Below are positions 7,748-39,814 of a stretch of 64,000 bases of DNA, piece by piece. Position 1 is the stretch's first letter. Each line of letters opens with the position of its first letter. Location: positions 3,160 through 67,159 of IMG/VR virus record IMGVR_UViG_3300049846_002429. One strand, given 5' to 3'. The notes under the pieces were generated by a model. It had not been told where the DNA came from and did not search any database. It saw nothing but the letters and a program-made list of their open reading frames with translations. The translations under genes were made by a program, and so were the position numbers. This DNA comes from a virus.

Positions 7748-7765
7748 CCAAACCTCTTTAAATTG

Positions 7766-7774
7766 ATAATACCA
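7766..7774 (-). promoter_or_regulatory. extended -10 promoter (minus strand TGGTATTAT)
   Basis: Reverse complement of ATAATACCA; member of the recurring promoter family. Confidence 0.5.
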
Positions 7775-7788
7775 TAAAAAACATTGAA

Positions 7789-7877
7789 CTCTTAATAAAA
7801 CTCTTATTATCCTCTTAATATCCCTCTTATTAAGCCTCTTATCACTCCTCTTAATAAAACTCTTAATTTTCCTCTTG
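7789..7877. repeat. array of 8 CTCTTAWT direct repeats at 11-13 bp spacing
   Basis: CTCTTA at 7789, 7801, 7812, 7824, 7836, 7847, 7860 and 7872. Located between two tandem minus-strand promoters in the divergent control region. Confidence 0.7.
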
Positions 7878-7890
7878 GGTTAAGGGAGAA

Positions 7891-7907
7891 TGAAGTGAAG
7901 TGAAGTG
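7891..7907. repeat. GAAGT x3 pentamer repeat
   Basis: TGAAGTGAAGTGAAGTG. Confidence 0.5.
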
Positions 7908-8025
7908 GGAAATGAACCTAAGCCGATTCCTAGAAATAAGCGTTTTCCTATTCCTTTGAACCTTCCCTACTACTGTGTAATCATGACGGCGCAACGAAAA
8001 ATAATGCATAAAGTTCTCCATTTGT

Positions 8026-8034
8026 ATTATACCA
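8026..8034 (-). promoter_or_regulatory. extended -10 promoter (minus strand TGGTATAAT)
   Basis: Reverse complement of ATTATACCA. Confidence 0.5.
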
Positions 8035-8052
8035 TAAAAGCGTTATGATTTG

Positions 8053-8061
8053 TGGTATAAT
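8053..8061 (+). promoter_or_regulatory. extended -10 promoter TTGTGGTATAAT
   Basis: Exact 12-mer TTGTGGTATAAT, repeated at least 6 times in the window. Confidence 0.55.
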
Positions 8062-8090
8062 AGATTAAGAATCATACCAATGAGGTACCT

Positions 8091-8772: not shown

Positions 8773-9077
8773 GAAAAGGTCATTGGCGTTTAGTTTTAGA
8801 ACATCTACCTGAAGGAAAAACCAATCCTGCATCTAGGATGACTGTGATTGCCAACACCAAAGAAGAAACTGTGGAGGGCCTCAAAAAGATTTTCACAGGC
8901 GAGATTAAAATGTCAGAGATACCCAAAACAGGGTTAGATCTTAGAAACTCACACAAAACAGGGTTATCAAAAGCCAAGCAAAAAGAACAAGAAGCTTTGG
9001 ATATGATTCACTTAACACAGGAATTAAATAGAAATCTAGAGAAGATCGGTGTTTCTATTAAAACAAAAAAGAAATGA
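8769..9077 (+). CDS. hypothetical protein (GTG start)
   Basis: ORF starts at GTG, overlapping upstream stop. Confidence 0.35.
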   Translation: MRKGHWRLVLEHLPEGKTNPASRMTVIANTKEETVEGLKKIFTGEIKMSEIPKTGLDLRNSHKTGLSKAKQKEQEALDMIHLTQELNRNLEKIGVSIKTKKK

Positions 9078-9598
9078 AACGTAAACAAATACCAAACCCT
9101 ATGGTTGCAGTTCAGAATGCTCAGCTATTAGCTATTGAGGGCAGGCTGTCAAATACTATGGATGCCTTTGAACGTAGAGTCCGTAGGTGGTTTAGTAAAG
9201 AACACAGTACACCTTATCTAGATACTTTTAAGCTTCCTTGGGATGAACTGCTCCTACACTACTACGAATCAAACCTGGCCGACAAGAGCTATAATGAGGT
9301 TTTTGATCTAGCAGTGGAGCAGTATTTACCTGAGTTTATGGAAGCTGCAGAAGAGACGGATGCAGAGTTCGCAGCATCACTTGTAAAGCGTCAGGAAGCT
9401 GAATTAAAGGCTAAGAAGGCCAGGGATAAGCACCTTAAGGACCTAGAGGCTGCAAGCAAGCAGATGGCCGATAGCGCGGCTATAATCAAGGATAAAGCAC
9501 AATCTATAAGTAATAAGCTGGATGAAAAGAATGCTAATAAGCCTTCGCCTAAAGCGATGAGTTTAAAGTTTGACGACAATCCAGAAGATGACATTTAG
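9074..9598 (+). CDS. hypothetical protein
   Basis: 174-aa ORF with ATGA coupling. Confidence 0.5.
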   Translation: MKRKQIPNPMVAVQNAQLLAIEGRLSNTMDAFERRVRRWFSKEHSTPYLDTFKLPWDELLLHYYESNLADKSYNEVFDLAVEQYLPEFMEAAEETDAEFAASLVKRQEAELKAKKARDKHLKDLEAASKQMADSAAIIKDKAQSISNKLDEKNANKPSPKAMSLKFDDNPEDDI

Positions 9599-9633
9599 CC
9601 CTAAATAGCTCTAAAGGCGTGGGTTAGGTGCAT

Positions 9634-9689
9634 GGCTAATAATAACCATAAATTATGGCTAATAATAACCATAAATTATGGTTATTATT
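9634..9689. repeat. 23-bp tandem direct repeat (x2) ending in a perfect 14-bp-arm palindrome AATAATAACCATAA-a-TTATGGTTATTATT
   Basis: Read directly from sequence; palindrome at 9661..9689. Confidence 0.8.
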
Positions 9690-9703
9690 GGATATAAATA
9701 TGG

Positions 9704-9759
9704 ATAGTAGAGGATAGCACCGGATAGTAAGCAATAGTAGCCAATAGTAAGGCTAGATA
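9704..9759. repeat. five ATAG(T/C)A iterons at exact 10-bp phasing
   Basis: Iterons at 9704, 9714, 9724, 9734 and 9744, plus a degenerate sixth copy. Confidence 0.75.
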
Positions 9760-9894
9760 CGCAAAATTGACGGTTTTTGAGCCACGCATCATTTGCCCGA
9801 AACAGTAATAGATTCGCGCTTTTCGATGTTGTGGTATTTGTGCGCCCAAAAGGATAGAAAGCGACATTTGATATGAATGGTAAGGAGATTAAAA

Positions 9895-10245
9895 ATGGAT
9901 AAAGTAATTGCATGGTGGAAAGATCTGGTTAACAAAATGAACGAAAAGGGAATTCCACTCCCCATGGTTCGCGTGAACGGCAAGGCTTCTGTAACTGGCA
10001 GTCTTGTGGTTGTTTCTGCGTTTTTGATGGCACTGCCAATTGTTATCATGGTTGCCACTGTAATCACTAGGATTGCAGGTCTTTTCACCCTTAATGAGGC
10101 TAATCAACAACAACTAATGAACGCATTCAGCGCAGCAATTCAAATGCACATCGCAGCATTAGGTGCTTATCTTGGCCGTGGAATGCAGCGCGGAGCCGAT
10201 GGCAAGGTTATTATGGAAAAATCTTCGGAGCCTGAACAGAAATAG
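9895..10245 (+). CDS. small membrane protein
   Basis: RBS AAGGAG 7 nt upstream; TM segment VVVSAFLMALPIVIMVATVI. Confidence 0.5.
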   Translation: MDKVIAWWKDLVNKMNEKGIPLPMVRVNGKASVTGSLVVVSAFLMALPIVIMVATVITRIAGLFTLNEANQQQLMNAFSAAIQMHIAALGAYLGRGMQRGADGKVIMEKSSEPEQK

Positions 10246-10862: not shown

Positions 10863-11108
10863 TCATTTTCCCTCCTGATTAGGTGATGTGAAATCAAGAA
10901 ACGGCAAGCACAAAACGATAAGCTGTGCGCGGCTTTTAACGTGCAATGTTGTATAAATGTTAGTCAAATGCATCTTCACGCCTTTTTCAGTAATGAAGAG
11001 CTGATTGCCAATTTCAGCGTTGCTCAAGCCACGAGATACTAGATCTGCGACCTCAGCCTGTCTGTTTGTAAGACCTTTTTGAATCAGGACGTTTTGTAAT
11101 TTGTTCAT
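10863..11108 (-). CDS. LuxR/GerE-type HTH transcriptional regulator
   Basis: Motif LTNRQAEVADLVSRGLSNAEIGNQLFITEKGVKMHLTNIY; RBS AGGGAG 8 nt upstream of ATG. Confidence 0.6.
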   Translation of the reverse strand: MNKLQNVLIQKGLTNRQAEVADLVSRGLSNAEIGNQLFITEKGVKMHLTNIYTTLHVKSRAQLIVLCLPFLDFTSPNQEGK

Positions 11109-11109
11109 T

Positions 11110-11487
11110 TTATGCTCCCTTCGCATATTTTTTAAATATAGCATACACTTCTTGCTTTGTGCAAGGAATACTTACTTTTGCGCTCATTAAAGGACACTTT
11201 TCGTCATGTCCAACACCAAAATAGGTGTGAACCAATTCATGAAATACAACGTGACGGAGGATATCGTCGTTATCAGCCACAACATTACGCATAATAGAGA
11301 TGTGCTTAACGCGCAGGTGAGCGGTGCCAAGAACATTGCCTTCGTTTTCAACAATACGAACTTCCACACGAGGAAGGCCAGGAACAAGCTTGTTAGCCTC
11401 ATAAACTAGCGCTATAACTTTACGGCGAAGAGCGAACACCTGATTGTTCATTTCCAAGTTCTTTCGACCTACTACGTTCTTTTTCAT
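11110..11487 (-). CDS. small zinc metallopeptidase-like protein (HExxH)
   Basis: Motif VVFHELVHTYFGVGHDE. Confidence 0.5.
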   Translation of the reverse strand: MKKNVVGRKNLEMNNQVFALRRKVIALVYEANKLVPGLPRVEVRIVENEGNVLGTAHLRVKHISIMRNVVADNDDILRHVVFHELVHTYFGVGHDEKCPLMSAKVSIPCTKQEVYAIFKKYAKGA

Positions 11488-19494: not shown

Positions 19495-19631
19495 GGAAGA
19501 TTTTTATATTTAACAATCTTTTCACAATTAACATAACTAATTGAAATAATTAATAAAATTTAAAAAAATATTTTTAATATTTATCAAAAATAACAATCTC
19601 TGTAAGAGTGGTTACAATAAGAGGTTAGAAA

Positions 19632-27158: not shown

Positions 27159-27207
27159 GTTTTAGAACAATAACAAACTCCCGAAAGGGAAAAAAGGAGA
27201 AATGTAC

Positions 27208-27921
27208 ATGAAAAAGTTAATGGTGATGCTTTGTCTGTTGGGTGCAGTTGGTTGCTCCCCAGATCGAGAGGTAGTAGAGATCGTAAATGGAACCCCAGGA
27301 ACAAACGGACATTCGCTTGTTTCTCAATATATGGCCGCCACAGAACTTGAGTGTGATAGTGCAGGCGGTAGTCGTCTAGACATCTATATCGATATGGACG
27401 ATTCTTTGACGCCTTCAGAAGGCGATAACTATCAGAATTCTTTGGTGGTTTGTAACGGCTTGAATGGATTAAACGGACAAGATGGTCAAGATGGTCAAGA
27501 TGGAACTGACGGCAGTAACGGCGAAAACGGACACGATGGAATCGCAGGTCCTCCTGGACAAGCAGGTCCTCCTGGATTAAACGGAAACCCTGGACAAGAC
27601 GGCGCACCTGGACCTCAAGGACCTCCTGGAACACCTGGCGCACCTGGACAAGACGGCGCACCTGGACAAGATGGTAAAGATGCACACGTAACTCCTCGTA
27701 ATGTTGGCGCAAATTGCACAAACATTCATCCTAATTACGATGCATTGATTAAGAACAATACTGTTGAAATTTACACAGCAAATGCAAGTCATTCTTGCCC
27801 TGCTCCTAACAAAGTATTTGTTTTGACCTCATCTTCTTCGACTTTCTGGCTGTCAGCTACTGAACTTGCTGTTTTTGTTGACCCTGCTGGTCTTCGTATC
27901 TTAAACTATGGTTCAAACTAA
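27208..27921 (+). CDS. collagen-like repeat lipoprotein
   Basis: Lipobox LLGAVGC after signal peptide. About 25 uninterrupted Gly-X-Y triplets ([13 protein letters not shown]...GAPGQDGKD). Confidence 0.65.
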
Positions 27922-39404: not shown

Positions 39405-39814
39405 ATTTGAAAAAACGACTCCTTCATATTGCTCAGAAGTTGGACGAATCTCGTCAGTATGGAAAAACAACTCTACTTGCCAAGATTACCAAAGAGTTGG
39501 GTGGGATTTTGCTTGTTCATAATTTTGACGAAGCAAGGCTGCTTGAGAGAAAACATGACATTGTTGTTAAATCCATCGATGTTGGTCTGGACGGACTTAC
39601 TGGTCCTTTTTTCTTAGACAATCACGGCGCATCTGTTCTTTTGACCAGAGCTGCCAATAAAATTGAAGCTTTGGAAAAAGAGATTGAAGAGCTTAAAACT
39701 GGCAAAAAGACAGTAAAATCTAATCTTGATTTTTTTAAATCTGATCTTGATTTTTCAGAAGAGTTGCTTGGCAAAGATATTGGTTTTGAATTTGACTATG
39801 GAGATGAGCGATGA
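39401..39814 (+). CDS. hypothetical protein
   Basis: 137-aa ORF; coiled-coil C-terminus. Confidence 0.5.
   Translation: MNLKKRLLHIAQKLDESRQYGKTTLLAKITKELGGILLVHNFDEARLLERKHDIVVKSIDVGLDGLTGPFFLDNHGASVLLTRAANKIEALEKEIEELKTGKKTVKSNLDFFKSDLDFSEELLGKDIGFEFDYGDER

Follow-up and report, generated by a model that had tools for sequence, protein, structure and literature searches.

A repeat-bearing intergenic gap in an uncultivated phage as a candidate landing pad for DNA-binding proteins, framed by two conserved hairpin elements

Which purpose might a gene-free interval of a phage genome serve when a tandem 23-mer, a perfect palindrome and a row of hexamers spaced by one helical turn lie in it side by side? 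This question is posed by a 296-bp gap (positions 9599-9894) in a 64-kb stretch of viral DNA, referred to here as the window, that separates a conserved gene for a 174-amino-acid (174-aa) protein from a block of variable small genes. An earlier note on this DNA had offered a replication origin, a partition site, a packaging signal or a landing pad for regulatory proteins as possible functions. The evidence assembled here fits the landing pad. It lends no support to origin, partition or packaging functions, as judged by the cognate families not being recognized in the window, the 10-bp length of the repeat units, the invariant N-terminal domain of the adjacent 174-aa protein and the course of the GC skew.

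The gap and its genomic setting

The DNA stems from an uncultivated, myovirus-like phage whose genome probably measures about 165 kb. The protein families recognized in the window include baseplate proteins, RNA ligase, PNKP and PhoH, as well as peptide deformylase, ClpP, thymidylate kinase, MazG and UDG; Rep, DnaA-like, ParA/B/R, TubZ, integrase and terminase families were not recognized in its 64 kb. Among the 50,697 phage records of INPHARED, neither the 4-kb stretch around the gap (searched as DNA) nor three flanking or large proteins of the window (searched with tblastn) found a match. A separately assembled copy of this genome, L001, has the identical gap (0 mismatches in 10.5 kb). The earlier note had placed no ORF in the gap; in L001 no gene is called there, and the only ORFs present are mechanical ones on the minus strand. 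In addition, the gap alignment displays no 3-nt conservation pattern, and stop codons repeatedly close all three frames. No tRNA or tmRNA was found, and a literature search for the motifs yielded no relevant match.

The 174-aa protein encoded upstream of the gap has 32 homologues in metagenomes with identities of 41-100%, and its AlphaFold model is all-helical (pLDDT 72). We found no fold or sequence match in the PDB, no profile match and no Pfam or PHROG family for it, and the JGI label 'primosomal protein N'' attached to its homologues is without support. On the other side of the gap, the first gene differs from phage to phage among the relatives. The only DNA-binding gene recognized near the gap encodes a LuxR/GerE-type helix-turn-helix (HTH) protein (10863-11144, minus strand); it is located 1.2 kb from the palindromic sites, is also present in the relative L037, and nothing ties it to these sites. 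Small winged-HTH, ribbon-helix-helix or Cro-like families were not recognized with Pfam and PHROGs among the neighboring ORFs.

The phage possesses its own promoter motif, TGTGGTATAAT, of the extended -10 type, with six exact and seven one-mismatch copies that are nearly all positioned 5' of genes. One of these promoters, at 8051, precedes four closely spaced genes on the plus strand, the last of which is the 174-aa gene; the gap is followed by the gene for a 116-aa membrane protein and then by a further promoter at 10244. The gap itself holds no copy of the motif. A plus-strand scan of 9599-9894 for intrinsic terminators (G+C-rich stem followed by a U-tract) detected none, the stem of the palindrome being A/U-rich. 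With neither a canonical promoter nor an intrinsic terminator in the gap, transcriptional read-through is likely, and we read the gap as a conserved non-coding spacer inside, or bounding, an early plus-strand operon (Table 1).

Other promoter classes were considered for the gap and set aside. A T4-type late promoter, TATAAATA at 9693, is not enriched in the window (4 copies versus 4.7 expected) and consequently does not represent a promoter class of this phage. No convincing sigma-70 -35/-10 site was found, TTGACG at 9768 not being kept as TTGAC in the relatives, and, inspected by eye, the conserved block does not fit a sigma-54, ECF or Bacteroidetes -7/-33 signal. A Bacteroidetes-type host signal is likewise argued against by the strong use of Shine-Dalgarno sequences and by the TGTGGTATAAT promoters. 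As a separate observation, a second, lineage-specific array composed of 11-12-bp units is located between back-to-back promoters 1.5 kb upstream of the gap.

Table 1. Features in and around the gap; positions are those of the window.
Feature	Position	Strand	Remarks
Gene for 174-aa protein	9074..9598	+	Directly 5' of gap; helical N-domain, K/A/E-rich long helix, conserved C-terminal PKxMSLKFDD
Hairpin A	9588..9633	+	Predicted fold; spans stop codon of 174-aa gene
23-mer tandem, two perfect copies + ATGG	9632..9677	.	Found with repeat tools; absent from all relatives
Two 17-bp dyad sites, AACCATAAATTATGG(C/T)T	9644-9660 and 9667-9683	.	Centers 23 bp apart
Perfect 29-bp palindrome	9661..9689	.	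Inside 82% A+T stretch 9641-9700
Motif GGATATAAATATGGATA	9690..9706	+	Exact in L028, L004; partial in L027, L031, L035
Phased array GGATAGTAGA, GGATAGCACC, GGATAGTAAG, CAATAGTAGC, CAATAGTAAG + degenerate GCTAGATACG	9702..9761	+	One-turn direct repeats
Element B	9771..9853	+	~83 nt hairpin-plus-tail, conserved, single copy
Gene for 116-aa predicted membrane protein	9895..10245	+	First gene 3' of gap; Shine-Dalgarno AAGGAG 9882-9887

Repeats in the hypervariable middle

The repeats that had drawn attention to this locus are all present. The 23-mer ATGGCTAATAATAACCATAAATT occurs as two tandem copies that are 100% identical (9632-9654 and 9655-9677), so that the start formerly assigned to the direct repeat, 9634, falls 2 nt inside the first copy. 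A third copy is partial (ATGG at 9678-9681), and shuffled sequences lead one to expect no such repeat at all. The inverted repeat that had been described as centered at 9675 is a perfect palindrome, AATAATAACCATAA-A-TTATGGTTATTATT, with arms of 14 nt. With up to three mismatches allowed, its 17-bp core gives seven matches versus 0.47 expected, a number reached in 0 of 100 shuffles; the seven are made up of both dyad sites counted on each strand and three weak matches elsewhere. The hexamers ATAG(T/C)A do follow each other at 9704, 9714, 9724, 9734 and 9744 in exact 10-bp steps, and the paired pattern ATAGYAN4ATAGYA has four matches versus 0.04 expected. Degenerate units extend the array beyond these five, namely GGATAT at 9690 and GCTAGATACG at 9752-9761. 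Across the whole window, the array stands out as the top lag-10 self-similarity (14 versus 6 for the runner-up); genome-wide, ATAGTA is not enriched (28 versus 32.8 expected). Each of the three elements, the 23-mer, the palindrome and the hexamer array, is far beyond chance and unique within 64 kb. We also considered the palindrome as a mobile mini-element, since its 19-bp core is found in three viral and 16 genome contigs; these matches lie in unrelated contexts, show no similarity in their flanks and are attributed to chance.

The A+T content of the stretch around the palindrome places it in the top 0.2% of 60-bp windows, and it is the fifth least stable duplex. If transcribed, the palindrome is predicted to form a long A/U hairpin (about 9636-9691), and for the 10-bp array no structure is predicted. 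At 19.5 kb, the window holds a repeat region that is still richer in A+T.

Related loci were compared at the DNA level in 14 distinct metagenomic phage contigs; single-protein scans of IMG/VR with either flanking protein gave no match, and an alignment-based scan was needed. In all of the closer ones among these 14 loci, a non-coding gap of ~140 to 440 bp or more is situated 3' of the gene for the 174-aa homologue. The gap alignment falls into three zones: a conserved hairpin A, a conserved element B, and a middle that is hypervariable in both length and sequence. The 23-mer, the palindrome and the hexamer array are all contained in this hypervariable middle.

Conservation in relatives, on which the earlier note had made its proposal depend, was found in part. 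In L032 (about 8 units), L031 and L026, homologous arrays of 10-bp units with a TAGT core occupy the corresponding place. Paired 22-23-bp repeats with palindromic cores, whose copies are 73-88% identical, are found in L005 (CACTAGAT..CTAGTG, 22 bp), L007 and L037 (ACTTTAAAGT, 23 bp) and L034 (23 bp); they are analogous to the pair of the window, and their sequences are non-homologous to it. The sequence of the 23-mer and the palindrome, in contrast, is absent from all relatives, even from the closest one, L026, whose flanking protein is 80% identical. As dyad pairs recur in the relatives, the two 17-bp dyads of the window represent one instance of a recurring two-site layout. The preference for these periods is also evident in counts over the relatives. 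Lag-10 self-matches of 4-mers in 13 of them amount to 35 versus 12.6 +/- 4.7 in Markov controls when the conserved flanks are left out (78 versus 14.6, an inflated figure, when the hairpin A repeat is included), and self-matches at lag 23 amount to 41 versus 11 +/- 4.5. L007 and L037 carry CTGACTGACTTAATTAATTA-type strings with stops in all frames. A reading of the array as CsrA-type GGA repeats was dropped, as the units of the relatives are without GGA.

The perfect identity of the two 23-mers in the window indicates a recent duplication. This would also be expected if the middle of the gap tolerated any sequence, if tandem duplications arose in it by slippage at hairpins, and if only hairpin A and element B were functional. 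Such a neutral middle is in line with the recent event to which the identical 23-mers point, with the hypervariable length and sequence among the relatives, and with an unrelated 12-bp repeat, GATCCGCCAAAA, that is found in three copies at the same place in L028. Slippage, however, has no reason to favor 10 bp and 22-23 bp in separate lineages, and it accounts neither for the retention of the older, diverged repeat pairs in L005, L007, L034 and L037 nor for the dyad symmetry within each repeat. We therefore regard a purely neutral origin of the repeats as decidedly unlikely.

A replication origin deserves consideration as well. An initiator might occupy the phased repeats, the A+T-rich palindrome might melt, and element B or a read-through transcript might activate or prime replication. 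Short octamer-type iterons at helical spacing do exist in some phage origins, for instance in that of P4. The placement of the repeats beside one of the most A+T-rich and least stable stretches of the window, the single-copy nature of the locus with one element B per genome, and its conserved position in the relatives are all consistent with such a function. Yet no initiator, helicase-loader, primase or polymerase family was recognized in the 64 kb, and the units measure 10 bp as opposed to the 17-22 bp of classical iterons; beside the 10-bp units with their 5-6-bp core, the only longer unit is the 23-mer, which is present in two copies and unique to this genome. Across homologues whose gap repeats differ, the 174-aa protein next to the gap keeps an invariant N-domain, although the binding specificity of an initiator would be expected to co-vary with its repeats. 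The A+T-rich palindrome was found in none of the relatives, so that a conserved unwinding element appears to be lacking, and a richer A+T repeat region exists elsewhere. DnaA boxes were rejected, for by eye the GGATA units agree with no more than 5-7 of the 9 positions of TGTGGATAA, and the core conserved in the relatives is TAGT and not GGATA. The cumulative GC skew, which the earlier note had proposed to follow over the full genome, turns in the 64-kb window only where the gene strand turns, near 8 kb and 14 kb. Taken as a whole, an origin at this site appears quite unlikely to us.

Our preferred, albeit tentative, reading, to which we would grant somewhat less than an even chance, is that the middle of the gap acts, at the level of DNA, as a landing pad for proteins through which expression across the gap is controlled. 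The 10-bp period corresponds to the helical repeat of DNA, and no RNA-binding protein with a 10-nt reading period is known to us. The helical period, the dyad symmetry and the layout that is kept while its sequence turns over collectively point to protein-DNA sites rather than to RNA signals or junk. As the layouts recur and the sequences differ between lineages, the architecture appears to be selected while the sequence drifts, as is the case for sites that co-evolve with their binding proteins. Moreover, the second array of 11-12-bp units in the same genomes makes such series of short binding sites look habitual in this phage group, and the LuxR/GerE-type HTH gene of the module is in keeping with a landing pad as well.

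Protein binding, the identity of the binder and the transcriptional output are what we infer in the following scheme. The six to seven direct (G/C)(G/A)ATAGTA units, each one turn apart, would provide a track on which a protein polymerizes, keeping to a single face of the helix, as P2 Cox, 186 Apl and R1 ParR do on repeats of 10-11 bp. The two 17-bp dyads with their 23-bp spacing would serve as an operator-type pair for a dimeric regulator, and would have come about when a recent 23-bp tandem duplication, whose copies are still 100% identical, doubled a single palindrome. Binding would then modulate transcription entering, or starting at, element B and the block of variable genes that follows. 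Several observations weigh against a landing pad. There is no TGTGGTATAAT promoter in the gap and hence no evident target on which operators could act; TGTGGTATTTG, which alone is promoter-like, is located 75-130 bp 3' of the array and lacks the T at -7. No cognate family of binding proteins was recognized among the neighboring ORFs. The 10-bp array is found in three relatives only, which are phylogenetically close, so that its recurrence may partly reflect shared ancestry. Finally, the 100% identical 23-mers fit recent neutral slippage equally well.

Two conserved hairpin elements at the borders of the gap

The earlier note had listed the repeats correctly and had overlooked two conserved hairpin elements that bracket them. 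Hairpin A has a predicted outer stem, AUG.CAUUUAGCCC / GGGUUAGGUGCAU, within which lie the stop codon of the 174-aa gene and a small inner hairpin, GCU-CUAAA-GGC; a 10-bp direct repeat, TAGCCCTAAA/TAGCTCTAAA, lies within it (9596-9615). This fold is predicted in nine lineages (the window, L026, L032, L005, L028, L031, L004, L027 and L033). Compensatory changes are seen in the outer stem (GUCC/GGAC in L033, UUUACACC/GGUGUAAA in L004) and in the inner stem (ACC/GGU, ACU/AGU). In several relatives, GGATATAAATATGGATA follows directly 3' of hairpin A. As this motif comes straight after hairpin A there, the 23-mer/palindrome block of the window, which is placed between ATGG and ATATAAAT, looks like a lineage-specific insertion.

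Element B has a mean column identity of 76% over its ~83 nt in the alignment, and the same fold is predicted in 15 of 15 sequences. Its stem P1 is predicted to consist of 10 bp with one bulge (9781-9790 pairing with 9825-9835), followed by an internal loop and an inner hairpin (about 9795-9801 / 9813-9819) around an invariant AAACAGUAA; the tail, AUUUGUGCGCCCAAAA (9836-9851), reads AUUUGUGCGUC(Y)AAAA across the relatives. P1 cells are paired in 86.7% of cases, as compared to at most 50% when the partner strand is slid. Three P1 pairs have changed on both sides, the covariation score exceeds those of all 500 shuffles, and a model-fitted alignment gives a similar outcome. The strand test for P1 is weak, with 86.7% paired on the plus strand versus 81.3% on the minus strand. 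A covariance model finds element B exactly once in the window and once in each relative, and it further retrieved a distant copy in L016, in which the P1 sequence is entirely different and still complementary. Rfam 15 gave no match at the gathering threshold over the whole window, and at E-values of up to 10 (positions 9400-10100) it produced spurious miRNA/sRNA matches on the palindrome only and none on element B. The exact-pattern scan of IMG/VR for element B returned nine matches, eight of them due to chance and one on a contig already in the set; when the 157-aa neighbor was used as a bait for further copies, a single contig was found, and it ends before the gap.

The position of element B relative to transcription and translation signals varies among these phages. 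In the window, it lies shortly ahead of the ribosome-binding site of the 116-aa gene. In eight relatives, it ends 15-25 nt ahead of the Shine-Dalgarno sequence or start codon of the next gene. A canonical promoter is found 3' of it in L004 and L028, and a promoter-like sequence is similarly placed in group B. Only UAUUUGUG follows element B directly. The 3' part of element B, TGTGGTATTTG, itself resembles the phage promoter, but its -10 region reads TATTTG, with a G at -7; the corresponding site in L005 and L035 is TATTTT.

These features raise the possibility that the gap acts at the RNA level. It might be read through from the 8051 promoter, with hairpin A, the A/U hairpin and element B as signals for processing, stability or attenuation, and with the UAG-rich repeats keeping ribosomes off the spacer or binding an RNA-binding protein. 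The likely read-through, compensatory changes in both hairpin A and element B, the complementarity retained in P1 of L016 despite its different sequence, and the placement of element B shortly ahead of translation starts in eight relatives speak for this possibility, as do the fold of the whole gap (z = -1.9), the repeated stops in all frames and the stop-containing CTGACTGACTTAATTAATTA-type strings of L007 and L037. A 10-nt period, on the other hand, has no obvious RNA meaning and fits the helical repeat of DNA, the array is predicted to lack structure, the strand test for P1 is weak, and the A/U hairpin of the window is lineage-specific. Furthermore, the promoter-like sequence is located 3' and not 5' of element B in L004, L028 and group B. 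Hence, a function of the gap predominantly in RNA strikes us as unlikely, though by no means far-fetched.

Irrespective of how the middle is read, constraint within the gap is strongest in hairpin A and element B, which are probably also its most interesting parts. Taking a bolder view, to which we attach only low confidence, the two would form a previously undescribed pair of structured cis-elements bracketing a programmable protein-docking spacer. The entire unit would then be either a replication origin or a new type of leader (attenuator/antiterminator) that gates expression of the hyperplastic set of small, variable genes in a new family of ~165-kb phages from freshwater/groundwater.

Comparison with known systems and implications

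A landing pad for DNA-binding proteins can be set against several well-studied arrangements. The lambdoid operators OR1-OR3 and OL1-OL3 are 17-bp dyad sites with a center spacing of ~23 bp, and their sequences vary between related phages. The dyads of the window match these in length (17 bp) and spacing (23 bp). Unlike the lambdoid operators, they overlap no -35/-10 region, have no CI/Cro-type gene next to them, and number two sites only, which derive from a perfect recent duplication. The origin of lambda contains four iterons of 18-19 bp inside the initiator gene O that co-vary with the DNA-binding domain of O. Lambda and the window have in common that direct repeats are combined with an A/T-rich segment and a ~28-29-bp palindrome within ~150 bp; the units of the window, however, are 10 bp long and intergenic, no initiator was recognized, and the palindrome is unconserved.

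T7 RNase III sites are intercistronic hairpins of early polycistronic mRNAs. Hairpin A and element B, as opposed to the repeats, resemble them as imperfect hairpins of ~45-60 nt with an internal loop that are positioned between early cistrons and conserved in structure. They differ in that the window elements exist in one copy per genome instead of one per cistron junction, and in that the loop AAACAGUAA and the tail AUUUGUGCGUC of element B are strongly conserved in sequence.

Phased repeats are also known from packaging and partition systems. The small terminase of SPP1 acts on phased one-turn repeats at pacL/pacR. On the plasmid R1, ParR uses one-turn phased repeats on parC, whose 11-bp iterons form two sets of five and also function as operators (PMC2241845). 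With its five tandem short iterons the window comes close to this arrangement (10 bp versus 11 bp in parC; PMC2241845). A small terminase subunit or a centromere-binding protein might accordingly be thought to wrap the phased repeats of the gap. We judge this to be very improbable, given that no terminase, ParM/ParA or TubZ family was recognized in the window, that its gene content is that of a large phage of the lytic type devoid of plasmid-maintenance genes, and that a pac site is usually found in or beside terS. Furthermore, the two sets of parC flank the par promoter and are followed by parM and parR, whereas the gap has a single set and lacks a promoter motif, and neither an actin-like nor a ParR family was recognized in the window.

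The sites of Apl and of other recombination directionality factors (RDFs) are direct repeats spaced one helix turn apart (PMC7498355), and the cox-boxes of P2 Cox are found in a regulatory intergenic region of the phage (PMC3936717). The array of the window is similar to those of P2 Cox and 186 Apl, two filament-forming winged-helix proteins of the RDF type, in having 5-7 direct repeats with a core of 6-9 bp and one-turn spacing over 50-70 bp (PMC3936717; PMC7498355). Where RDF/Cox/Apl arrays comprise at least 4-6 direct repeats at 10-11 bp, the window offers five in exact phase plus one to two degenerate units. It differs from them in that no Cox/Apl/Xis-like protein, integrase or attP was found in the window, in that the array overlaps no recognizable promoter, and in that its core, ATAGTA, bears no relation to TTAAAG/CNCA. 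As neither cognate genes nor promoter overlaps were found, the gap cannot be assigned to the Cox/Apl, parC or lambdoid systems, and our proposal is consequently that it may work like one of these, not that it is one of them.

The gap can be viewed as a compact unit: between two constrained hairpin elements lies a spacer that keeps its repeat layout of one-turn arrays and paired dyads while its sequence is rewritten between relatives. A layout kept with its sequence rewritten is the signature of a co-evolving protein-DNA recognition. Should element B prove to be a structured RNA, it would be a new cis-regulatory motif of phages; should the spacer prove to be an origin, it would be the first for this phage group; and if neither holds, the gap would be an ordinary operator-type spacer. 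As the lineage is without a cultured or annotated relative among the 50,697 phage records, any control region mapped in it provides a foothold for the study of its early programme.

Conserved flanks of the repeat-bearing gap and the adjacent 174-aa protein

The repeat-bearing non-coding gap is bordered on its left by a conserved structure, hairpin A, which encloses the stop codon of the upstream 174-aa gene. A 10-bp direct repeat (TAGCCCTAAA/TAGCTCTAAA) lies within this hairpin. Nine lineages keep hairpin A, and both its outer and its inner stems show compensatory changes. The protein family encoded by the upstream gene (window 9074-9598 and homologues P0001-P0032) is characterized by an invariant N-domain motif, FERxVRRWFS...LLHYYE, followed by a long K/A/E helix and, at the C-terminus, by the conserved peptide PKxMSLKFDD, which resembles a partner- or clamp-binding tail. 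The labels 'primosomal protein N'' and 'nuclease with TOPRIM domain', attached by JGI to some of these homologues, found no support in our present analysis.

On the right, the gap is flanked by element B, built from a 10-bp stem, an inner hairpin enclosing the invariant AAACAGUAA, and a tail of the form AUUUGUGCGUC(Y)AAAA. Each of 14 relatives carries a single copy, and a further copy, with a fully compensated stem, is present in the distant L016 (5969-6050); no match to element B was obtained in Rfam. A canonical promoter (AATGTGGTATAAT or TGTGGTAATAT) lies immediately 3' of the element in the related phage contigs L004 (4770-4790) and L028 (3785-3800). In L005 a canonical promoter precedes the element by 41 nt, and the placement of element B relative to promoters is therefore not fixed.

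A phage-wide promoter motif

The promoter motif TGTGGTATAAT is found phage-wide and corresponds to an extended -10 element preceded by T-rich DNA and lacking a -35 consensus. Six exact copies are present in the window, and 44 matches are reached when up to two mismatches are allowed, against 21 expected.

Coordinates of features in the window; the TGTGGTATAAT positions are examples, both exact and one-mismatch
Feature	Position	Strand	Remarks
Divergent gap	7748-8090		back-to-back TGTGGTATAAT-type promoters
12-bp tandem array CTCTTAATAA	7789-7876		about 7 copies, within the divergent gap
Hairpin A	9588-9633
Element B	9771-9853		about 83 nt, conserved, single-copy
21-bp and 9-10-bp tandem repeats (AAATAATTAATAAAATTTATAAA)	19500-19600		intergenic gap
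Collagen-like Gly-X-Y repeat protein	27202-27921		Pfam Collagen, E = 1e-15
21-bp near-perfect tandem repeat AAATCTAATCTTGATTTTTTT	39716-39755		1.9 copies, 94% match
TGTGGTATAAT promoter sites	8051, 23256, 27148, 32754, 37502, 63531	+
TGTGGTATAAT, one mismatch	10244, 13591, 37206, 44842	+
TGTGGTATAAT, one mismatch	8026, 52039	-

Other repeats and the array of the divergent gap

The collagen-like protein encoded at 27202-27921 explains the tandem repeats of 9, 18 and 54 bp located at 27464-27671. No other part of the window is as rich in A+T as the repeat region at 19500-19600, which reaches 95% over 60 bp and may be an unwinding element or a regulatory site. Among the relatives, gaps of L007 (4620-4700) and L037 (3700-3770) contain CCTGACTGACTTAATTAATTACTAG, runs in which TGA and TAA recur with a period of 4 and leave no reading frame open, in the manner of an engineered three-frame stop cassette.

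An 11-12-bp array occupies the place equivalent to that in the divergent gap in every relative, and its 7-bp core differs between them (CTCTCGC in L026, ATCCTAG in L028, GAGTAAC in L031, GACCTGT in L034 and ATCCCGT in L037). It looks like a co-evolving set of iterons or operators, and as a candidate for an origin or a regulator site it is at least as good as the repeat-bearing gap at 9599-9894.
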